Shown here: positions 16,269 to 27,471 of the stretch, one piece after another
How the letters are laid out: every line of letters starts with the position of its first letter
Position numbering within the stretch: the first letter of the stretch is position 1
Sequence record: OL615011
DNA from: Shigella phage vB_SboS_Gloob
DNA: 64,000 nt
Reading direction: 5' to 3' (one strand)
Made by a program: the position numbers and the translations under genes
The notes under the pieces: model-generated
Databases searched by the model: none
What the model was told of the DNA's origin: nothing
The model's input: only the letters and a program-made list of their open reading frames with translations

Positions 16269-18512
16269 TTAGATTTTGATCTCTTTCTCTGCCAGTTCGG
16301 CAGTGACCTTGTACTTCACACCATCCACTTCAACTTCCATGGTGGACTCTTCCAGGTCGAGGTCGGTGAACCAGCCGTGGCCAGCAACGATACCATAAAC
16401 CACTTTAGACAGCGTCTTGTTCAGGGCGCGGACTTCGGTGATGGCCGCCTTGGCAGCAGCGTCGATCCAGTTTTCGATCAGCTGTTTCTGTACGGCTTCA
16501 GGCACGGCAGTGATCGCAGGAGACTTCACGAATGCTTCGTATTCCTTCAGAGCATTGGCGATGAACAAGTCACCCGCATTGAGTTTCTTGTTCTCGGCAA
16601 TCTTCTTCTGTACTGCCGCGATGCTCGGCAGAGAAGACGCTCCAGCGATCTTAACGTTCAGCTCACGGCTCATGTAGACATCCGTGGAGTCCTTCAGTTC
16701 GGTCTTCGGTGAGAAGCCGTAATCACGGATGCCGTAGGAGGACAGGAACTCAGCCGCCTCAGCGCCGTACTGTACTGCCAGGCCTTTGGCGTTGCCTTTG
16801 CCAACCAGTTCATCACGGAAGAACTTCAGCACCTTCTGCTTGCCTTTCAGGGCTTCCAGACGGACATTATCCGCAAAGAACTGAGCAGCACTGATGTTCT
16901 TGACCATGGCGCGGTTGACCAGCGGTACGCTTTCCAGGTTCAGGACAAACACTTCCGGACCACCGAACACATGGACGCCCATCTGGCACAGATTGGTTAC
17001 AACTTCAACATCAGCCCTGAACGGCAGAGTCTTCACGTTGATGATGCCGTCTTTGACGATGGTGTAGTTGCGCCATTGGAAAGTATCCAGTTCTTCAGGC
17101 AGACCGAACTTCTTCTGCACGAACTCCGGAATCGCCACAGTGCCGTGCTGGACAGTGCGTACACTGATATTAGGGCGTTCGGAGTTATAGACCAAATCGC
17201 TGATTGGCACAACACCCAGATCGTTGGTAGGTTCGAACGTCGGGTTCCACTCTTCGTGCTCGGCCAGCTTGAGAGCCAGGGCTTTGCGCTCTTCTTTGGA
17301 CTCGGCGTTCGCGATCTGTTCTGCCAGCTTGTCTTCGGTATCGTCCAGTTTCTGAGCCGTACCGCGACCGATGCTCTTGTAGGAGAACATAGGATGTTTG
17401 GTGGCAACACACACGCCAGCTTCAGCCAGATACGTCAGCACGTCAACGACGGTCGTCGCATCTTCAGCCGGGACCAGGTCATAGTCAATACCGTCAACGC
17501 CGCGCAGCTGGTCATCAACGATGGCCTGGGTCAGATCAACTTTGATGTTGGAGTAGTCCTGCTTGGTGAAGCAGTTGCTGTACTGTTTGATGAAGCGGAC
17601 GTCGCCCGTTTTCTTCAGTGCAGCCCACACCAGGTCTGCGTCCATGATGTGTACGCCGTAGAACGCCAGCACGTATGCCGCCTGGATGTCCGCCAGCGCA
17701 TCAAGTTGGTCGATCATGTTAGGATTGACGACCCACAGCTTCGTGACGCTCTCAGGGATGCTCACGTGGCCAACGGGATGCTCTGCGTCTGCCTGTACCG
17801 CCAGAACAGTTGCTACGCCGTTTTCAACGTAGATGGCATGATCATACAGCAACGGAACATCAACAACCACCTTCGGAACTGAGGACTTCAGCACGGTTTC
17901 CAGCTCGGCCTGATACTCAACCTGACCTTCGGCAAACACGTGAGTCGCACCGGAGCGCTCAGACATCAGAGCCAGCAGTTCGCGGTTACAGTACCAGCCG
18001 TATTCGATGAAAGTGACGTTGTCGAACGCGGAAGGAAGTTTTTCGGCGGTGTCCAGGATCTCATTGGAGCGCCAGCAGTTGTCATAACCATCGGTCATGA
18101 ACGCCAGGTTGTTGACGTAGCCGGGTTTCTTCAGGTCACGCGCAGTATCCATCGCCAGTTTCAATGGCTCAACAAAACCAGTACAGCCGGACGGTTGTAG
18201 GAAGCGGTCGATCAGTTTGTTCAGCTCGCTCAGGTCAGATGCTGCACTAACCTGACGGCCAGCGAACACAGTACCAAAGTCGCCACGGGATGAGAAATAC
18301 AGAACACTCACAGTGTCTTCCGGTTTCACCAGAGAAGGCAGGTTCTCCTTCAGATGCTTACGGACTTCAGGGAGCGCCCGGTACATTGAACCGGAAATGT
18401 CTACAACGATTACATGGTTGGACGGAGCAGCAGTCGCAACCACATTCTTAAATTCTAATGATTCAATCATTGTTCTCTTCGCCTTTTGCGTAAGGGTTAA
18501 GTTCAGACTCAT
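16269..18512 (-). CDS. large protein with N-terminal von Willebrand factor A (vWA) domain
   Basis: MIDAS motif VVVDISGSM near the N-terminus; 747 aa. Confidence 0.5.
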   Translation of the reverse strand: MSLNLTLTQKAKRTMIESLEFKNVVATAAPSNHVIVVDISGSMYRALPEVRKHLKENLPSLVKPEDTVSVLYFSSRGDFGTVFAGRQVSAASDLSELNKLIDRFLQPSGCTGFVEPLKLAMDTARDLKKPGYVNNLAFMTDGYDNCWRSNEILDTAEKLPSAFDNVTFIEYGWYCNRELLALMSERSGATHVFAEGQVEYQAELETVLKSSVPKVVVDVPLLYDHAIYVENGVATVLAVQADAEHPVGHVSIPESVTKLWVVNPNMIDQLDALADIQAAYVLAFYGVHIMDADLVWAALKKTGDVRFIKQYSNCFTKQDYSNIKVDLTQAIVDDQLRGVDGIDYDLVPAEDATTVVDVLTYLAEAGVCVATKHPMFSYKSIGRGTAQKLDDTEDKLAEQIANAESKEERKALALKLAEHEEWNPTFEPTNDLGVVPISDLVYNSERPNISVRTVQHGTVAIPEFVQKKFGLPEELDTFQWRNYTIVKDGIINVKTLPFRADVEVVTNLCQMGVHVFGGPEVFVLNLESVPLVNRAMVKNISAAQFFADNVRLEALKGKQKVLKFFRDELVGKGNAKGLAVQYGAEAAEFLSSYGIRDYGFSPKTELKDSTDVYMSRELNVKIAGASSLPSIAAVQKKIAENKKLNAGDLFIANALKEYEAFVKSPAITAVPEAVQKQLIENWIDAAAKAAITEVRALNKTLSKVVYGIVAGHGWFTDLDLEESTMEVEVDGVKYKVTAELAEKEIKI

Positions 18513-18779: not shown

Positions 18780-20444
18780 TCAGATTTGTGATGCCAATTC
18801 TGCCACCAGAGGAGCAGCACGAACACGCGCATCTTCCAGAGTCTGGGTGTTGAAGAACTTGCCGTCACGATACACCAGCTGGTGCTGGTTGTCGGCGTCT
18901 TGCACCTGATCAAAGGTGATACCGTCAACCAACACTAGTTTACCCTGAGAGTCTTTAATGACTTTAAGGAAACCACGCGCAGACTTTTTAGTCCCGCCTT
19001 TGTCGGTCTTCGGCTCTTTGAAGATCTCACGGAATTCGCCGTTCACTTTACCAGCCGTTGCTTTCACTGCCGTGCCAGTACTGTCACGGGTGTTCATCTG
19101 GTAGGTGTAGGAACCGATACCGAACACCACGTTGATGGAAGCAAAGTTCCGGCCAGCCAGACGACCAAAGATCTGGTCTTCACGTGCCAGGGTGATGGAG
19201 TCGCCGTAAATCAGACCGATGTGTTCGTCCAACAGGAAGTGACCAGTTTCGGTCTGGGTCCCGCCAAAGATCTCCCACAGGCGCTGGATAGAGCCGACCG
19301 CTTCTGAACGACTGATGATATTGCGGTCATCTGCCATCAGAGAGTTGATCGTGCCTTCGCCTGTAATCAGGTGATAGGTGTTCGTCTCTTCGATGTGAAT
19401 GACTTCGGTGCTGCTAGACACGCCGCTGATGTTCAGCATAGCGCGGTCTTTGAACCCCTCAATGCGGTAGCCGCCGACGATATGAACTGGGTCGCCCGAG
19501 TCAGGGCGGATCACGACTTTGCCGTTGCGTGCCATGATAATATCTTTCAGGCGCGGCAGATAGTCGTCGATGACCTGCCAGTAATCCCACGCATCAGACA
19601 CGATGCTGACGATGCCATCAGGATACACGTCCTGCACCAGGCGGCGGAAGGTTTCGAATTCACCATCCTTCGTACCCATACACATCACGGCGTGTTCGGT
19701 AGCCGCAACAGAACCAGCAACGACATAGTCTTCGTCGATGTCTGCGCCATAATACTCTTCTACGAAGTCCAGGGCAGGGTTGGTATCGGTGCCTTTGAAG
19801 AACACCAGATGACCGGAACCGGAAGACGCCGCGTCATGCCACCCACTCATACCACGGAAGGAGAAGTCGTGGCCTTGGTAGTCGATGAACCAATGGTCCG
19901 GCGACACGCCTGTAGCGAGGGCAGCTTTCACCATCAGTGCCTTGTAATGCAGAGCGATGGTGGCGTTCGTCATCGGCTTCCAGATCTCAGAGCTGAACAC
20001 AGTCTCCAGATAGTTGGTCAGCCAGTAGAACTCCGGCAGGGTGTTGAACATCACATACACCGGAACGCCATATGGGCACATGGTGCCTTCAGGCAGAGCA
20101 CGGACTTCGATAGGCAGGTAGCCGAGGTCATGCAGGGCTTCAATATGCTCTGTGCCGACGCGGCCTGGACCCAGGACTTTGTTCATGCGACGGGCATACT
20201 TCTTCAACACCTTGGCCTTTGGGCGCTGGAAGAATGCTTCGTCAAACAGTTCGTGGAACCAGGTCATGAAGCCCTGGATGCCCCAGACCACCACGCCGTT
20301 CTTCGGCAGGTGAGAGTTGAACAGTTTGTTGGAGCGCGGAGTTCCGTTGGAGAACACCAGCTCGCTGCCTTCAGGGAACTGATAGATGTGCCCTGATTTG
20401 TAGAAGTCGATTGCATGGATTGGATCTAAGTGGCGCATGCTCAT
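18780..20444 (-). CDS. nicotinamide phosphoribosyltransferase (NAMPT/NadV) family enzyme; candidate nicotinamide ADP-ribose transferase
   Basis: Collinear with human NAMPT: LPIEVRALPEG...EFYWLTNYLETV, HDFSFRG, GHLVFFKGTDT, VIRPDSGDP. Confidence 0.85.
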   Translation of the reverse strand: MSMRHLDPIHAIDFYKSGHIYQFPEGSELVFSNGTPRSNKLFNSHLPKNGVVVWGIQGFMTWFHELFDEAFFQRPKAKVLKKYARRMNKVLGPGRVGTEHIEALHDLGYLPIEVRALPEGTMCPYGVPVYVMFNTLPEFYWLTNYLETVFSSEIWKPMTNATIALHYKALMVKAALATGVSPDHWFIDYQGHDFSFRGMSGWHDAASSGSGHLVFFKGTDTNPALDFVEEYYGADIDEDYVVAGSVAATEHAVMCMGTKDGEFETFRRLVQDVYPDGIVSIVSDAWDYWQVIDDYLPRLKDIIMARNGKVVIRPDSGDPVHIVGGYRIEGFKDRAMLNISGVSSSTEVIHIEETNTYHLITGEGTINSLMADDRNIISRSEAVGSIQRLWEIFGGTQTETGHFLLDEHIGLIYGDSITLAREDQIFGRLAGRNFASINVVFGIGSYTYQMNTRDSTGTAVKATAGKVNGEFREIFKEPKTDKGGTKKSARGFLKVIKDSQGKLVLVDGITFDQVQDADNQHQLVYRDGKFFNTQTLEDARVRAAPLVAELASQI

Positions 20445-21295
20445 TTTACACGTCCTGTATTTTCAGTTTTGAAAGGAAGGCCGTCGGTGGTGATATTCTC
20501 CCACCAGACAGTGTCGGCATACACAGCATCATAGATCCCGTCGAAAACAGAGAGACCTTTGCTGAAGATGCCATGGGTGACGAAGAGCGTCATGTGCTTA
20601 GGCTCGTGCTTCTGAAGCTCTTTACCCAGCTCAACAAACGTGCGCCCGCCATCGCAGATATCATCAACCACCACCAGATAGCGGTCTTTGATCAGTTCAG
20701 GGTTTGTAATGCTCACCCCAATGATCTCACCAGTCTTGGTGTCACGGTTCTTGTGGCCGTAGACAACAGGAACACCATCCAACGACAGGCTGAGGGCTTC
20801 GGTCTTCTTCGCCGCGCCGCCGTCAGGGGCTACTAGCACAGCGTTGTTCCCACGGATGAACCAGCCCAGATACTGCCGCACGATGTAATCTTGCGGGACA
20901 ACATGGACGTTGTTGATCAGAGAAGACACGACATGGCTGTGAGGGTCTTTGATCGCCACGCGGTCAAAGTTCATGCTATTGATGAACTCAGCCGCCCACT
21001 TCACGGACAGAGGCTCGCCGAAGTCGCAATGGCGGTCCTGGCGAGCATACGGGAAGTAAGGGATATACGCATGGAAGGTCGTCAGACGGTCCACGTTACC
21101 CAGGCCGCGCACGGCGTTTACCAGAAGCGCCAGCTCAATGAAGTCGGCTGATGATTTGATGTGGGCATCAATCACAACCGTCTGAATCTTACCGACAGGA
21201 ATACCAGCCTTTTGGATCTTGATATGTTCCTCACCACCTGGGAAGGTGAAGTGTTTGTAGAACACATCTTGGTCGTTCAATTTCAAACGAAACAT
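20441..21295 (-). CDS. ribose-phosphate pyrophosphokinase (PRPP synthetase) family enzyme; candidate ADP-ribose pyrophosphate synthetase
   Basis: IPYFPYARQDRH and VVVDDICDGGRT match Prs motifs; ATGA overlap with the NAMPT-like gene. Confidence 0.8.
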   Translation of the reverse strand: MFRLKLNDQDVFYKHFTFPGGEEHIKIQKAGIPVGKIQTVVIDAHIKSSADFIELALLVNAVRGLGNVDRLTTFHAYIPYFPYARQDRHCDFGEPLSVKWAAEFINSMNFDRVAIKDPHSHVVSSLINNVHVVPQDYIVRQYLGWFIRGNNAVLVAPDGGAAKKTEALSLSLDGVPVVYGHKNRDTKTGEIIGVSITNPELIKDRYLVVVDDICDGGRTFVELGKELQKHEPKHMTLFVTHGIFSKGLSVFDGIYDAVYADTVWWENITTDGLPFKTENTGRVK

Positions 21296-21401: not shown

Positions 21402-21768
21402 TCAGGTTTTGGATTGTTCACATACCTCGGCCACCTTGCGACACATGTCGATATCGAACAAGCCAATATGACACTCACGCTTCTTTATCCCCAGCTTATG
21501 CGCCAGCCAACTGTAAGCGTCGCTCCTGCTCCTCTCTCCGCTTTTCCACAATGGGTCAAACGATCTGCTTCTCGGCACGGAGAGCGGCATTCGCCATCCT
21601 TCCCAGAGGTTGTCTGCCGTCGCCATGGGCATGGCAACCGACACGAGCGTCACATGGAGTGCATACCCAGAACTTCAGATTGCGGAGGTCAGGGCGATGA
21701 GGGTGGAGGACGTCACCACCGATGAATTCGGCTGGGAGGCCGCAGTAATCACAGATGACAGGTTTCAT
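21402..21768 (-). pseudogene. zinc-ribbon (CxxC...CxxC) phage protein interrupted by a frameshift
   Basis: N-terminal half (MKPVICDYCG...CTPCDARVG...GRMANAALRAEKQ) and C-terminal half (SFDPLWKSGERSRSDAYSWL...CHIGLFDIDMC) lie in two overlapping frames, one-nucleotide shift near 21560. Confidence 0.45.
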
Positions 21769-21787
21769 ATTCTTTGTCCAAAAGAAA

Positions 21788-21804
21788 CCCCGCACATGGC
21801 GGGG
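21788..21804 (-). terminator. hairpin terminator upstream of the zinc-ribbon gene
   Basis: ccccgcacatggcgggg stem-loop followed by a T-run on the minus strand. Confidence 0.4.
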
Positions 21805-21828
21805 TTGCTCAGGCCGAGGCCAACAGGG

Positions 21829-22200
21829 TTATTTCAGCAGCGCTTCCAGTTCTTCAACAGATTTGCCTTCCAGCTCCTGCTGTTTCTTACGCTGGATCAG
21901 CTCCAGGATAACCTGGTTGTTCGCCTTACGCTCTGCCGCGTCTTTGCTGTCGTCACGCTCTTTCAGCTTAACGCCGATGATGTGCTTGACAACGTCGAAG
22001 CGCAGCTGCAGTTCGGAGTCAACGTTGCTTTTGGTGCCGATGAAATCTTCTTCATCGGTTTCCGCTGCCTTCACCTGACGGCTCAGACCTTTCGCCATTT
22101 CGTTCAGGGCAGTCAGGCTCAGGTCCCAGACCTGCTCAACAGACAGCAGACCTTTGTTAGACTCGAAGCGCAGTTTCAGACGGGTTGCTTTATCAAACAT
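21829..22200 (-). CDS. hypothetical protein
   Basis: 123-aa ORF. Confidence 0.45.
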   Translation of the reverse strand: MFDKATRLKLRFESNKGLLSVEQVWDLSLTALNEMAKGLSRQVKAAETDEEDFIGTKSNVDSELQLRFDVVKHIIGVKLKERDDSKDAAERKANNQVILELIQRKKQQELEGKSVEELEALLK

Positions 22201-22244
22201 TTTACTATCCTCAATGATGAATGGGTTACAGTTTCAAATCAGGT

Positions 22245-24263
22245 TTAGAAAACAACTTTCACAGTGCGGTTGAAAGAGCCGCTCACCTTCACGAACACGT
22301 GGTTGCGTTGGGTGGTAGAGAAGCCCAGACCGGACAGCTGCTCAGTGCTTGGCTGTACTTTAATCTTACCGCCCAACATTTCAAAAACCTTGCGGTGTTT
22401 ATCAAGTTCCGGCTTCAGATACTCGTTATAGAAGCCACGAGTGCCGACAGGGTTAGCACAACCTTCCAGAATGAAGAACACGTGCTTGTTGCCTGTCTGT
22501 TCGCCATCCCAATGGTTTGGTGAGTTCAGAACCAGCTGTACCTTCTGGAAGACAGCGGTCTTGATACCCCAGATTTCCTGGGAGCGAGCATCGTCCTTCA
22601 GGGTAGAACGGATGTCTACCACTTGTCCAGCGCGGACATCAATCACAACAGCCAGAGTGCGATCTTTGTGCTTCAGGCCAGGATGCGAAAAACGCTTGGT
22701 CTGGCCTTTGTATTCAACTTCGATTTCGAAGCCCATATCACAGGTTTCACGCTGGCTGAAGTTAGTGACATAGAACTCGTACAGACCATCACGCAGCTTG
22801 CGTTCATCGCTGAAGAAGATGTTCTCCACCGGGCGGCGGTTGGGGTCAATACCGTCCATACCGTTCATGTCGATATCCAGGGTTGCGCCAGTTGCCGAAC
22901 GACGGTTGTGATAATACACGTGGTTGTGAAGAGGATCGTTCAGGCTCAGATCCAGGTCATCGTTGTTATGCCACGCCAGGGACACACGGAGGAAACCGTC
23001 AACGTTGCCGCCTGCCGTCTTCACGCGCTCTTTGATGGAGTCGGCCACTTCACCGTTGTATGACCAGCTGAAGCCGTTGTTCCACTTGAACAGGTTAGGA
23101 GCACCTGCCGTAGCCGGAGCGATCAGGGACATCAGGTTGCCAGTGTGAGAGTTTTCAACCAGCACTTCCAGGGAATGCGCCTTTGGCAACACGTTGGTCA
23201 GGAAGTCGTCGATGGTGATCTCTTCAACCTTGTCCAGGGACTTGGTCGGAGTCTTCACTTCAGACGCCAGCTGAGCAAACGGGTCCATCTTCTTCTGTGC
23301 TGCCAGGTCGGCAAACAGAACGTTGTTGATGGTCAGATCGTCATACACGGCATAACGGCGACCCAGTGAATCAGTCAGACCCAGCGCTTCGACTTCTTTC
23401 TGCGCGTTTTCAATCATGGACTTCGTGACCAGCGCGGTTGGGCGCTTGTAGTTCGTCGGAGCGACTTTGGCTTCAAAGGACTTCACGGCGGTTTCCAGAT
23501 CCCGACCTTCATTGAGGTCTACCAACAGAGAGCCAATCACGGTATTGCGGATGCCGTGAGGGGTGTGTCCGTTTGCACGGTAGCCAGTACGCCAAGCCCA
23601 CAGAGCGCGTTTCTCTTCTGCAGTTTGTTCGTACAGGGTCTTGCTCGTCACGAACGCCTGCACAGCAGCTTTGTGCTCTTCACCACGATACAGAGAATTC
23701 TGATCAATCAGTTCCAGAACGATTTCGGCCGATTCCAGAGACAGTTCACGCAGGCCGCGCTCAAACACTTCAATCGCCTGGCGGATTTCACCCTTCTTAG
23801 AAGCGATGGCATCAGCCCGCAGAACATAGCTGGGCAGCAGGTCGGTGTGGAAGTGGTTGTAGGTGCGGACATTACCGTCTTTCATTTCGTGATTCGACTC
23901 AACGCCGACTTTCTTGGTATCGTTGAAGTACACGTCGACGATTGCGTGTTGCTTGACATACGCAGACAGCGCCGCAGCGACAACGTCGTATTCGTTACCC
24001 AGCTGAATGTTATCCCAGATAGAGATCACGTTCAGGTCGGCGTCGATGGTCACCACACCGCCGATGTTACGGATGAATTGTTTACAGCAGGTGCAGTCGT
24101 GCTCGGTGCGCTCACGGTAGAGCGGGTTGGTGCCAGCAGGGAAAGAGTTCAGATACAGATCCCACAGAGCATCTTTATCGATGTTGGTCATGAACAGACC
24201 AGTTGCTGACATGGCCAGCACATTATTGTTTACGGCTACTGCGAAGGGCTTAAATTCTGACAT
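22245..24263 (-). CDS. large hypothetical protein (672 aa)
   Basis: No polymerase, ligase or P-loop motif recognised by eye; contains a CTCC cysteine cluster. Confidence 0.5.
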   Translation of the reverse strand: MSEFKPFAVAVNNNVLAMSATGLFMTNIDKDALWDLYLNSFPAGTNPLYRERTEHDCTCCKQFIRNIGGVVTIDADLNVISIWDNIQLGNEYDVVAAALSAYVKQHAIVDVYFNDTKKVGVESNHEMKDGNVRTYNHFHTDLLPSYVLRADAIASKKGEIRQAIEVFERGLRELSLESAEIVLELIDQNSLYRGEEHKAAVQAFVTSKTLYEQTAEEKRALWAWRTGYRANGHTPHGIRNTVIGSLLVDLNEGRDLETAVKSFEAKVAPTNYKRPTALVTKSMIENAQKEVEALGLTDSLGRRYAVYDDLTINNVLFADLAAQKKMDPFAQLASEVKTPTKSLDKVEEITIDDFLTNVLPKAHSLEVLVENSHTGNLMSLIAPATAGAPNLFKWNNGFSWSYNGEVADSIKERVKTAGGNVDGFLRVSLAWHNNDDLDLSLNDPLHNHVYYHNRRSATGATLDIDMNGMDGIDPNRRPVENIFFSDERKLRDGLYEFYVTNFSQRETCDMGFEIEVEYKGQTKRFSHPGLKHKDRTLAVVIDVRAGQVVDIRSTLKDDARSQEIWGIKTAVFQKVQLVLNSPNHWDGEQTGNKHVFFILEGCANPVGTRGFYNEYLKPELDKHRKVFEMLGGKIKVQPSTEQLSGLGFSTTQRNHVFVKVSGSFNRTVKVVF

Positions 24264-24378
24264 GATGTAGTCTTCCTGTTTCAGTTCAAATGTGCGCCCC
24301 GTTTGCCAGAGCGCTTCGTTTAAGTGAGGTCAATAATACGTTGAAAAAGGTTATTGAAGAATGAAGTAAAGGGAATCT

Positions 24379-25599
24379 TTATTCAGGTTTCTTCAAACGG
24401 TCCAGCAAATTGACGGAACCACGTTTGAGCACGACTTCATCACAGCGCTTTTTGTATTCCCCGCCGCCGTCATAGCTGACCTTGCCCCGAGGTTTTTCAC
24501 CGCGCCCAACCGCCTCAACACAGCGAGTGTACTTGCTCAGTTCACAGAACATGTTCTCCAGCTGCATGACGTTCATGCACTGATCTACAGGCTCTTCGGC
24601 TGACCAGAATTGCTCGCGAACATACCCATATTGGGAGTATACTGCGTCCTGATTATCCCGTAGCCAGAATATGCATTCTTCGTGAGTCATGCCGTCTTTG
24701 TTCAGGAACAGCAGATCAATACCTGCGCGACAGCCCGGTCCGGCTATCGTGAAGTGGTTCTCACTGAACGGATAACCAGGCATGTACGTGAAGTCAACCC
24801 AGATCTGGTATGCCAGGAATGGACCAAGACCTTCGATGTCGTCGTACATGCGCTGGTATACTTCCAGAGGAGTACCAAGGCGCAGCAGGTCATGGAAGTA
24901 ATTTGGATACTTGTTGACGAATGCCTTCAGGGAACGGATGACACGCATTGGCATGTACGGCTCCCAGCCTTCGATGGTGTAGAAGTCCGGCTCCGCTTCA
25001 GCGATGGCCTTGGCTTCCTTATAATCCATGTTCTGGGTCGAACCATCTTTGCAGATCAGGTTCACCATCATCCCACCGAAGCGCTGCTCTTTGTGGTTGA
25101 CAACCAGCTCAGGGAAAGCCAGGCATTGCTTCAGACCGCCCGTGTTGAAGGCATTGGTGAATACTTTACCGCCGTCGGCCTCGAACTTCTGAAGTCGTTC
25201 GCGGGTTGCGTCAAGGTTGATCTTGGCGAATTCTTTGATCGTCATCGCGCCGCCGATAGCCTGGATCGGATCCCAGAGGTTGAACATGCGGAACAGCACG
25301 CAGTTAAACATCTTGTCTGCCATACCCAGAGCATCGTTGTTGACGATGTTGTTGATCAGGTTAAGAGACTGCCTGTCGTGCTCTCTCCGGACGTTACAGA
25401 ACTTGACCTGCCGTAGTATAGGATTATTCGTCCAAGGGGCAGGAAGACGCTGGACGTCCTTCTTGACGTGGATCTTATAGCGCTCGCTCATCCATTCGTA
25501 AGACAGGCGGGTATGGGTCGGACTGAGAACCGGTTTGGCCGACTTTATCTTTTCTTCACGGACACCGCAGTACGGGACGTCCAGGGCTTTATCTTTCAT
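24379..25599 (-). CDS. hypothetical protein (406 aa)
   Basis: Long ORF, function not recognised. Confidence 0.5.
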   Translation of the reverse strand: MKDKALDVPYCGVREEKIKSAKPVLSPTHTRLSYEWMSERYKIHVKKDVQRLPAPWTNNPILRQVKFCNVRREHDRQSLNLINNIVNNDALGMADKMFNCVLFRMFNLWDPIQAIGGAMTIKEFAKINLDATRERLQKFEADGGKVFTNAFNTGGLKQCLAFPELVVNHKEQRFGGMMVNLICKDGSTQNMDYKEAKAIAEAEPDFYTIEGWEPYMPMRVIRSLKAFVNKYPNYFHDLLRLGTPLEVYQRMYDDIEGLGPFLAYQIWVDFTYMPGYPFSENHFTIAGPGCRAGIDLLFLNKDGMTHEECIFWLRDNQDAVYSQYGYVREQFWSAEEPVDQCMNVMQLENMFCELSKYTRCVEAVGRGEKPRGKVSYDGGGEYKKRCDEVVLKRGSVNLLDRLKKPE

Positions 25600-25668
25600 G
25601 GTATCCTCTTAGAATACGAAAAACAGAGGCCATTATAGCCTCTGTTGTTTAGTGAATAACTGTATATC

Positions 25669-26538
25669 TTAATCGATACGGGACAGCTGAGTGATAGATG
25701 ATTGCACTGGGCTGGCCACATAGATACGGACGTTGGCTTTCCACGTACCCCACAGGAGAGGCAGAGTCGGGAAGTTTACTTCGTTCAGCTCAAATACAGG
25801 GATGTAACTCTCCAGCGCTTCCCCAGAATACGCCTGGAAGCCCATCTCGGCGTACTGAAGGATCTCTTCTGGGAAATCGAAAGGTGCGTATGCAACGCCC
25901 ATGGATTCGTTCATGCCCATTCGACCCGCAGTGGCAGTGCCCGTCAGAATGATTTCGGTGATCTGGCGCTTAGGCTCGGTGGTCAACATATCAGAGAAGT
26001 CCGGCTCTTTGAATGCTGCCATGTTCTTCAGGAACTTGCCAGCCGGGTACTCTTTGCCGTCGACGGTGATGGTGTCTACCACTTTGATGCACGCCTGAGG
26101 GAATTCCCCTTCGATGCGTAGACTTTCGCGTGGGAAGCCTTTGTTGTAGTAGTAATCCAGTGCAGGCACAACTTCACCTTCATTACGGATGAACTTGCTC
26201 ATGTTGGAAGCATAAACGCGCTGTAGGCACTCATCGCCGTCGAAACCAGCAATGTGAGCCACGCCGTCATTGACGGTGGTGATATCACCCTGAGCGTCCA
26301 TGATGTCCTTCAGGATTTCCTGAATGGTTCTGGTCTGGTAAGGTTCTTGTTTAGGTGTGAGCACCAGATCCAGTTTCACATCGCAATCGTAGTACGCCGC
26401 CTCCAACAGTTCGCGGGTCTCTTCCAGCACCAGTTTCGCCTGATTGCGAATCTTACCAAAGTCGGGCGATGTGACATCGCCCTTTGCATTACCGAAAGCC
26501 AGATTCAGATTCACGTTCTTAGAAAATGTAGTTGTCAT
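25669..26538 (-). CDS. hypothetical protein (289 aa), possible MazG-like N-terminal helix
   Basis: LVLEETRELLEAA acidic helix; weak. Confidence 0.4.
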   Translation of the reverse strand: MTTTFSKNVNLNLAFGNAKGDVTSPDFGKIRNQAKLVLEETRELLEAAYYDCDVKLDLVLTPKQEPYQTRTIQEILKDIMDAQGDITTVNDGVAHIAGFDGDECLQRVYASNMSKFIRNEGEVVPALDYYYNKGFPRESLRIEGEFPQACIKVVDTITVDGKEYPAGKFLKNMAAFKEPDFSDMLTTEPKRQITEIILTGTATAGRMGMNESMGVAYAPFDFPEEILQYAEMGFQAYSGEALESYIPVFELNEVNFPTLPLLWGTWKANVRIYVASPVQSSITQLSRID

Positions 26539-26554
26539 GATTTAGCGACTCCAG

Positions 26555-27019
26555 TTATTCGCTTTTGGCCTTTGTAGGCCGGATAATGTATTTTGGGACC
26601 AGCTTCCATTCAGGAACCTGATCGTGTTTAACCACTTTAATGCGTGACATATCGGCGGCTTCGGTGACCTGCTCGGGGTGAATGACCTTCACCATGTTCC
26701 ACTGCTCAAGCAGCTTGATGATGCGGTTCATCCTCAGGACATCTTCGCGGTTAAACCCGTTGTAATGCCCGTCCAGCATAAACAGATGCTTGAAGTGGAC
26801 GATATAATACTTGCCATACTTATGAAGAATATGACAAGTCTGATACAGAGTATTCGGCTCTTGGCGCGTGTTTACCCCAATTCGGCTCAGTGTTTCCTTG
26901 ATCCCCAGGAATATTCCTGGCCGATCTTGGTTCAATTGAACTTCAACCATACAATCAACGATGCTGGCCTCATCGTTGACGGCTGAAATGTTCAATATGT
27001 CTAGCGTATTGCGCGCCAT
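26555..27019 (-). CDS. regA: translational repressor RegA
   Basis: Collinear with T4 RegA (LYQTCHILHKYGKYYIVHFKHLFMLDG ... EWKLVPKYIIRP); the true start may be the internal Met at 26950. Confidence 0.85.
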   Translation of the reverse strand: MARNTLDILNISAVNDEASIVDCMVEVQLNQDRPGIFLGIKETLSRIGVNTRQEPNTLYQTCHILHKYGKYYIVHFKHLFMLDGHYNGFNREDVLRMNRIIKLLEQWNMVKVIHPEQVTEAADMSRIKVVKHDQVPEWKLVPKYIIRPTKAKSE

Positions 27020-27048
27020 GACTCATTCCCCTTTTACAATAGTTTGAA

Positions 27049-27471
27049 CTACTTAGCCTTGCGCGGTTTCGCTTTGGCGTTCAGCTCAGTACGTCCCATC
27101 TTCTCGCGTATCTCGGCCAGGACTTCCTTCGGCAAGAAACGGACGTACTCGGATGCCTTCTCCATGCTGATGTAGAAGTACTCGGAGAGTAACTTCACGT
27201 CAGGATCAATCGGACCTTTCTTAGACCATTTGTCGTAGCGTTTCCGCGCCGGAATGGTGTGAAAGGCATATGACCATTGCATCCATGGAGTGACAGCATG
27301 CAGCTTGTTCATCTGCTGTGCAGTCACCAGAGTGTCTTTGCTCTGAGCTAAACCACGCCGCGTCATAAACGGGTCGAATCCTTTCAACACTTCTGGGTCA
27401 TCAGACTGCAGAAGGTTTTCTTTGCTGCTGTTCAGAGCAGCCAGGTAATCGAACAATCCAGGGGCGGCCAT
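27049..27471 (-). CDS. 62: clamp loader small subunit (T4 gp62-like)
   Basis: TIPARKRYDKWSK matches T4 gp62 AVPRGKRYGKWAK; positioned between gp44 and regA as in T4. Confidence 0.7.
   Translation of the reverse strand: MAAPGLFDYLAALNSSKENLLQSDDPEVLKGFDPFMTRRGLAQSKDTLVTAQQMNKLHAVTPWMQWSYAFHTIPARKRYDKWSKKGPIDPDVKLLSEYFYISMEKASEYVRFLPKEVLAEIREKMGRTELNAKAKPRKAK

Follow-up and report, generated by a model that had tools for sequence, protein, structure and literature searches.

In phage T4, gene 43 for the DNA polymerase directly follows regA in the cluster 45-44-62-regA-43, whose genes share one orientation. Shigella phage vB_SboS_Gloob carries the first four of these genes in the same order and orientation, which raises the question of what stands in the place of the polymerase. 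We analysed a stretch of 64,000 nucleotides from this phage (sequence record OL615011; hereafter the window), in which regA is directly followed, all on the minus strand, by open reading frames (ORFs) for proteins of 289, 406 and 672 amino acids (aa). The original prediction, made from the sequence alone, had found no family-B polymerase motif in the three proteins, had placed them in the position of the polymerase and, should the phage be ViI-like, had suggested enzymes of thymidine hypermodification as their identity. The best explanation of the region as a whole, which we consider probably correct, is an ordinary replication-gene block of the Ackermannviridae (genus Agtrevirus) with the polymerase encoded elsewhere and three unrelated genes after regA. 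Statements on identity, orthology, fold, conservation of motifs and gene neighbourhood come directly from computation; all catalytic activities given below are inferred.

Comparison of nucleotide sequences places the source phage in the genus Agtrevirus of the Ackermannviridae and makes it ViI-like, as had been supposed. Window positions 22000-27100 are 96.7% identical to Shigella phage Ag3 (Ackermannviridae, Agtrevirus) and match 282 phage records, chiefly Salmonella, Klebsiella, Escherichia and Dickeya phages. The same gene order is found in Ag3 (orf00165 to orf00155) and in Salmonella phage ViI (Vi01_135c to Vi01_127c). Assignments from Pfam and PHROGs agree with the T4 record in the order gp45-gp44-gp62-regA, as first read from the sequence. 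The 289-, 406- and 672-aa ORFs are genuine genes, because each has hundreds of conserved homologues. The arrangement is the norm of the family and not special to Gloob; the locus is already known and has been public since Ag3 and ViI were sequenced. The block matching 22000-27100 is split in two in some relatives (Salmonella phages Marshall and Maynard, Escherichia phage AV101), which carry an HNH homing endonuclease or another insertion within it.

None of the motifs DxxSLYPS, YGDTDS, DTD or Walker A was found in a scan of the three ORFs, and none of the ORFs matched a Pfam polymerase family. A tblastn search with the Ag3 DNA polymerase as query gave no match in the whole window. The reported absence of family-B motifs was borne out. 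Nothing replaces the polymerase at this site. In Ag3 the family-B polymerase is orf00236 (999 aa, 145130-148129), at a distance of ~57 kb from the clamp-loader genes but only a few genes from orf00243 and orf00247, which Pfam assigns to the 5-hydroxymethyldeoxyuridine (5-hmdU) DNA kinase 2 family and the amino-acid:DNA transferase (ADDT) family, respectively. Thus, whereas gene 43 adjoins regA in T4, the polymerase of the Ackermannviridae is distant from the clamp loader and sits beside base-modification genes. The window aligns with ~64-128 kb of Ag3; the counterparts of the polymerase, orf00243 and orf00247 lie beyond its reach, and no counterpart of the kinase and ADDT genes of Ag3 and ViI was found within its 64 kb.

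These searches also bear on the notion that a DNA polymerase, split or highly divergent, is concealed in the region, or that the 672-aa protein is a DNA-directed RNA polymerase. The position matches that of T4 gene 43, the family of the 672-aa protein (DUF8224, see below) often occurs in replication modules, and phage ChubbyThor annotates a homologue as 'putative DNA-directed RNA polymerase'. Given the negative motif, tblastn and Pfam results, we regard this notion as close to negligible. The ChubbyThor label found no support and was rejected, and a split polymerase of the Aeh1 43A/43B type was likewise considered and rejected.

What the three genes encode was addressed by profile searches. 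The original prediction had assigned no family by eye; the searches supplied one for each protein (PF18723, the MazG-like phrog_2144 and DUF8224), although the 289-aa protein has no direct Pfam match. The clearest identity is that of the 406-aa protein. Its residues 30-363 match PF18723 HMUDK_hel ('5-hmdU DNA kinase, helical domain') at 7.7e-82 over positions 4-278 of 281, with 275 bits against a cut-off of 25 and no other Pfam match. Despite the name of the family, the protein is not a kinase, because it has no P-loop (GxxxxGK[ST] is absent) and consists of the HMUDK_hel domain only. It showed no match to the kinase profiles PF18748 HMUDK_HMUD1 and PF18747 HMUD2; the true kinases ViI orf00067 and Ag3 orf00243 do match these profiles. 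With no Walker A motif and no domain other than HMUDK_hel, and not being a pyridoxal phosphate (PLP) enzyme either, it is not of the enzyme types that had been listed for the locus (5-hmdU kinase, pyrophosphorylase or PLP enzyme).

The 406-aa protein is 84% identical over its full length to ViI gp160 (Vi01_130c, orf00160, YP_004327501). The ViI protein has the same single-domain architecture, is encoded at the same site after a MazG-like gene and regA, and shows no material difference. It has been listed as 'aG/PT-PPlase1' and was part of the five-lysate mix that yielded 5-(2-aminoethoxy)methyldeoxyuridine (5-NeOmdU) (Lee et al., 2018; PMC5889632); a later genome paper names the Agtrevirus protein aGPT-Pplase1 (PMC10458263). 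The idea of thymidine-hypermodification enzymes at the locus therefore stands in part: the 406-aa protein belongs to that gene set, whereas the 672-aa protein, as described below, occurs in many phages unconnected with thymidine modification.

Gene neighbourhoods tie the gp160 family to the hypermodification pathway. PaMx11 gp50, a member of the family (PF18723, 5.6e-41), is encoded between the kinase gp49 and the ThyA-like gp51 (deoxyuridine monophosphate (dUMP) hydroxymethylase). Genes for a DNA polymerase, an HMUD2 kinase, an ADDT and a gp160 homologue are contiguous in distant Ackermannviridae-like IMG/VR contigs (L116-L118; 554-7113). In another such contig (L115, 3353-12332), HMUD2, ADDT and the gp160 homologue are followed by gp45-gp44-gp62-regA, and in a further one (L119) an HMUDK1-type kinase comes after the gp160 homologue. 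Such a contiguous modification block may represent the ancestral order, scattered later in Ag3 and ViI, where the genes for the kinases, the ADDT and the PLP enzyme stand apart, at other places in the genome.

An HMUDK_hel-like protein is also encoded by gene 52 (L090, 3042-3911) of Microbacterium phage KatChan, a 40-kb actinophage, near genes for thymidylate synthase and thymidylate kinase. This context hints at thymidine modification in a group for which the literature we examined describes no case.

The predicted structure of the 406-aa protein suggests how it might act. The AlphaFold model, built with 49 homologues, has a predicted local distance difference test (pLDDT) score of 86 and a predicted template modelling (pTM) score of 0.82, and adopts a helix-hairpin-helix DNA-glycosylase-like fold. 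Its closest solved structure is PUGT (PaMx11 gp46, PDB 8z2m), the glycinyltransferase acting on 5-phosphomethyldeoxyuridine (5-PmdU). PUGT, M6 gp51 and ViI gp247 are ADDT proteins (PF18724, 'aGPT-Pplase2'), from which the 406-aa protein differs in having an extra inserted region at ~165-215 and only ~13% identity in the structural alignment. The similarity in sequence is not significant: BLASTP between the 406-aa protein and the ADDT sequences gave E ~1 and hhalign a probability <2%. The 406-aa protein did not match PF18724 even at E up to 10; Ag3 orf00247 and PaMx11 gp46 do match it. A profile search against the PDB sequences returned nothing.

Residues E348, N349, C352 and E353 are invariant in the 49 homologues. 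The only segment that hhalign aligns sets LE348NMFC352ELS against VE243TILC247KW of PUGT, in which C247 is the catalytic cysteine (PMC11472151); a Cys/Glu pair is essential in M6 gp51 and ViI gp247 (PMC8989533). The motif is kept in PaMx11 gp50 (VEHTLCEFDKY) and in ORF120 of Ralstonia phage RP13 (IENSFCELNKL). We read the 406-aa protein as a second ('clade 1') paralogue of the amino-acid:DNA transferases, orthologous to ViI gp160, and infer that it is a base-flipping enzyme acting on 5-substituted deoxyuridine in DNA through an adduct of the cysteine to C6. It would bind duplex DNA via its glycosylase-like fold and flip out a 5-substituted deoxyuridine such as 5-PmdU, the product of the phage kinases. 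In the next step, C6 would be attacked by Cys352, with Glu348 serving as the acid, as in the paralogues M6 gp51, ViI gp247 and PaMx11 gp46, and a nucleophile or a reductant would enter as second substrate in the final step. The resemblance of the Cys/Glu motif of the gp160 family to the catalytic pair of the transferases, and PUGT as its closest solved structure, are new here.

Several points weigh against an enzymatic role of this kind. The alignment of the motif segment has a probability <1% and is not significant, and in KatChan gp52 (IQNVFCEYSKY) the Cys is kept and Gln replaces the Glu. The ViI steps reconstituted in vitro employ the kinases gp67/gp243, the serine:DNA transferase gp247 and the PLP decarboxylase gp226, not gp160 (PMC8989533), and no activity on 5-hmdU or 5-PmdU DNA has been defined for gp160-type members (PMC5889632, PMC8989533). 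M6 gp55, a gp160 homologue, is dispensable for the transferase step (N-alpha-GlyT) in vitro (PMC8989533). This dispensability, together with the activity of the SP10 kinase domain on its own (PMC8989533), would also suit a non-catalytic role, in which the 406-aa protein would serve the 5-hmdU DNA kinases as a subunit for DNA binding or targeting and set the phosphorylated sites. Pfam describes the family as the helical domain of the kinase, the domain is fused to a kinase in SP10 gp186 (PMC5889632, Table 3), and gp160 homologues adjoin a kinase in PaMx11 and in contig L119. However, the Cys of the E/Q-x3-C-E-x2-K motif is invariant across very divergent members, which would be unusual for a purely structural residue. 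It also occupies the place, close to the C-terminus of the domain, that the catalytic Cys has in PUGT, and PUGT, the nearest solved structure, is itself an enzyme of this pathway. On balance we doubt the subunit role, while giving it some weight, and prefer a base-flipping enzyme.

If the 406-aa protein is such an enzyme, the second substrate could be a hydride donor. The route from 5-hmdU to thymidine is stated to be still unknown (PMC5889632), and borohydride turns the gp51 intermediate into thymidine (PMC8989533). One may speculate that gp160-type proteins turn leftover 5-hmdU sites in DNA back to thymidine; the reaction would proceed through the same Cys-C6 adduct and exocyclic methylene, quenched by a hydride donor instead of serine. 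Although we consider this specific reaction improbable, the 406-aa protein offers a cheap and direct candidate for the unexplained 5-hmdU-to-thymidine conversion in phage DNA.

The 289-aa protein matches phrog_2144 'MazG-like pyrophosphatase' at 7.8e-132. It has 275 close homologues, nearly all of them in the Ackermannviridae. A profile search of 1.8 billion representative proteins retrieved 313 relatives, nearly all of 150-260 aa and matching residues ~1-190 only. Ten relatives were sampled; five match Pfam PRA-PH, in four cases with a score over the curated cut-off, and one also matches MazG. Serratia phages Kevin and KNP4 and N4-like phages likewise match only the first ~185 residues, and residues ~190-289 form a ~100-aa tail specific to most Ackermannviridae. 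E39, E40, E43, E46, D81 and D85 are invariant in 22 homologues; their equivalence to the acidic metal-binding residues of MazG was judged by eye. We conclude from these comparisons that the protein probably consists of an all-alpha MazG/PRA-PH-type nucleoside triphosphate (NTP) pyrophosphohydrolase domain and a lineage-specific tail. An esterase matched in the PDB by both phmmer and profile search was spurious. One 400-aa relative is a thymidylate kinase fused to a PRA-PH-type domain, a fusion hinting that the clade may act on thymidine nucleotides.

The 289-aa protein would hydrolyse some (d)NTP to the monophosphate and pyrophosphate (PPi), and may help shape the pyrimidine dNTP pool for the synthesis of 5-hmdU DNA. 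A role of this kind is plausible because the thymine-hypermodification pathway of Acinetobacter phage SH-Ab 15599 uses a dTTPase/dUTPase of related fold, the bifunctional gp18 (PMC13458397). Both proteins can be described as nucleotide pyrophosphohydrolases of thymine-hypermodifying phages. The 289-aa protein is unlike gp18 and the MazG/PRA-PH enzymes in its additional C-terminal tail and in having no direct Pfam match. Other observations speak against the assignment or the role. The protein has no direct match in Pfam (PF03819, PF01503 and PF12643 included), NCBIfam or the PDB sequences. The MazG-like domain occurs in N4-like and other phages without known thymidine modification. Moreover, ViI has a separate dUTPase_2-type gene beside those for its ThyA homologue and the kinase gp67, whose product is the more obvious candidate for a dTTPase/dUTPase.

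The 672-aa protein has a very different distribution. Its whole length matches phrog_1735 (function unknown), and the identical protein and all listed homologues carry PF26675 DUF8224 in the precomputed annotation of a large protein collection, from which we took the assignment; the Pfam copy scanned here is without that model. More than 5,400 homologues were scored, and tblastn located DUF8224 in 558 phage records from many families. Carriers include, besides the Ackermannviridae, Klebsiella KB57-like and Cronobacter CR3-like myoviruses, Caulobacter phage Karma, Pseudomonas phage pf16, Schitoviridae RiverRider, Herelleviridae Bc431v3, the deoxyuridine-containing roseophage DSS3_VP1 and Microcystis phage MaMV-DC, as well as Naomviridae, phiCbK-like phages and cyanophages. 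This spread does not track thymidine hypermodification, and no DUF8224 gene was found beside the gp160 homologue in contigs L115-L125. DUF8224 is not a hypermodification enzyme, and that it neighbours gp160 in Ag3 and ViI is incidental. In the ViI reference genome (L003, 15301-17320), DUF8224 is annotated as two ORFs, Vi01_128c and Vi01_129c, of 491 and 183 aa. The two share a single frame when mapped onto the intact 672-aa ORF, which points to a frameshift or stop in ViI or to a sequencing error.

The AlphaFold model of the 672-aa protein (pLDDT 83, pTM 0.48) is confident per domain. Its C-terminal beta-sandwich resembles TerD (Klebsiella, 2kxt; SCO6318, 2qz7), whereas no fold match could be recognised for the N-terminal ~410 aa. 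D436, D438, D463, D465, E480 and N481 are invariant in 68 homologues of 40-56% identity, as are H137, R169, Y192, R274, R302 and R303 further upstream. The protein probably binds a metal ion or other ligand via the acidic cluster on the TerD-like sandwich. Unlike TerD, the sandwich is embedded in a larger protein and lies outside any Ter operon. The likeness is structural only, a point against it: even the isolated sandwich gave no match to Pfam TerD (PF02342). Pfam scans of the whole protein, 53 family members and the isolated sandwich returned weak DUF2135 and P-domain noise. Foldseek gave nothing in the PDB at E <=0.001, and searches of the PDB sequences with the single sequence or the 53-sequence profile gave noise only. 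NCBIfam and PADLOC were negative, and no literature on PF26675 or DUF8224 was found.

A small gene nearly always accompanies DUF8224. Here it encodes a 123-aa protein, 37% identical to the protein whose ORF comes immediately after DUF8224 in a distant large-phage contig. An ORF of ~130-150 aa lies within ~2 ORFs downstream of DUF8224 at ~62 of 63 diverse viral loci; these ORFs fall into three clusters whose mutual homology is not established. RiverRider, Bc431v3 and DSS3_VP1 also have a small ORF downstream. The next commonest neighbours are DNA ligase, PolA, DnaB-like helicase, metallophosphoesterase and UvrD-like helicase. We conclude that DUF8224 and its small partner make up a two-gene module that is found widely in the replication regions of phages, irrespective of polymerase family and DNA modification. 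It may be an accessory module, uncharacterised so far; the TerD-like sandwich and the near-obligatory partner are new here. In DSS3_VP1 (L009, 6502-8028), DUF8224 and its partner are followed by a nicotinamide phosphoribosyltransferase gene, with RNA ligase 2 and metallophosphoesterase genes upstream. In the window, similarly, a NAMPT-like gene follows the partner gene at a distance of ~1.4 kb.

Terminator-like hairpins lie between the 289- and 406-aa genes and after the 123-aa gene (Table 1). Their positions suggest two putative transcription units, gp45-gp44-gp62-regA-289 and 406-672-123, with the 289-aa gene probably the last of the first unit. Against such units, the hairpins are consensus matches and no more numerous than expected from shuffled sequence; a promoter scan of the sequence gave fewer hits than the corresponding expectation. 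The hairpin pattern also bears on the view that all three genes encode thymidine-hypermodification enzymes (kinase, pyrophosphorylase and PLP enzyme) in one modification operon. Co-transcription of the 406-, 672- and 123-aa genes would accord with an operon, the 406-aa protein is in the hypermodification gene set (PMC5889632), and a MazG-type enzyme could deplete dTTP. However, the kinases (PF18748, PF18747), ADDT and PLP enzyme are separate genes elsewhere in Ag3 and ViI, with none in the window. DUF8224 is present in Herelleviridae, Schitoviridae, Naomviridae, phiCbK-like phages and cyanophages and absent near gp160 in contigs L115-L125, and the MazG-like domain is widespread outside hypermodifying phages. 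A single modification operon is accordingly very unlikely, and the preferred reading remains a replication block with three unrelated genes.

For annotation, this means that the polymerase is neither missing nor replaced, and that the labels kinase for the 406-aa protein and RNA polymerase for the 672-aa protein should be avoided. Two conserved proteins without an assigned function are brought into focus: what is probably a catalytic transferase paralogue, found in the thymidine-hypermodifying phages examined, and a DUF8224 module present in hundreds of phages.

Table 1. Genes and terminator-like hairpins around the locus, in window coordinates.
Feature	Coordinates	Strand	Assignment and remarks
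gp45 sliding clamp, 222 aa	28545-29213	minus	phrog_223 at 1.8e-64; weak Pfam gp45-slide_C match
gp44 clamp-loader large subunit, 347 aa	27476-28519	minus	Pfam AAA and Gp44_lid; phrog_168 at 1e-105
gp62 clamp-loader small subunit, 140 aa	27049-27471	minus	Pfam Phage_clamp_A 2.7e-11; phrog_225
RegA translational repressor, 154 aa	26555-27019	minus	Pfam Translat_reg 1.9e-34
289-aa ORF	25669-26538	minus	predicted MazG/PRA-PH-type domain, residues ~1-190; tail, ~190-289
Terminator-like hairpin, 11-bp stem and T run	25622-25646	minus	between 289- and 406-aa genes; consensus match only
406-aa ORF	24379-25599	minus	ViI gp160 orthologue; Pfam PF18723 HMUDK_hel
672-aa ORF	22245-24263	minus	DUF8224 (Pfam PF26675)
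123-aa ORF	21829-22200	minus	helical, charged; DUF8224 partner; phrog_2018
Terminator-like hairpin	21786-21806	minus	after 123-aa gene; consensus match only

Downstream of this block, the window differs from Ag3 in several places. The homologue of Ag3 orf00153 (21402-21795, minus strand) is split over two frames near 21565 and has lost its last ~11 codons; it could be a pseudogene or reflect a sequencing frameshift. The window has no counterpart of Ag3 orf00152 (N4 gp48-like, ~0.8 kb). A 284-aa ribose-phosphate-pyrophosphokinase-like gene (20441-21295, minus strand) overlaps by 4 nucleotides a 554-aa NAMPT-like gene (18780-20444, minus strand). In Ag3, ~865 bp are missing there, and a single 547-aa ORF combines the N-terminus of the first product with the C-terminus of the second. 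The intact pair seems to resemble the NARP1 (Adps and Namat) counter-defence pathway of NAD+ reconstitution.

Further along, a 747-aa ORF (16269-18512, minus strand), the counterpart of Ag3 orf00144 (RB43 ORF119c-like), has weak N-terminal vWA matches. It lies close to the TerD-like DUF8224 and to the phosphoribosyltransferase-type genes, a grouping that recalls Ter clusters. A Ter-like system made up of DUF8224, the vWA protein and the phosphoribosyltransferase-type genes was not adopted, as these neighbours are not conserved around DUF8224 elsewhere.

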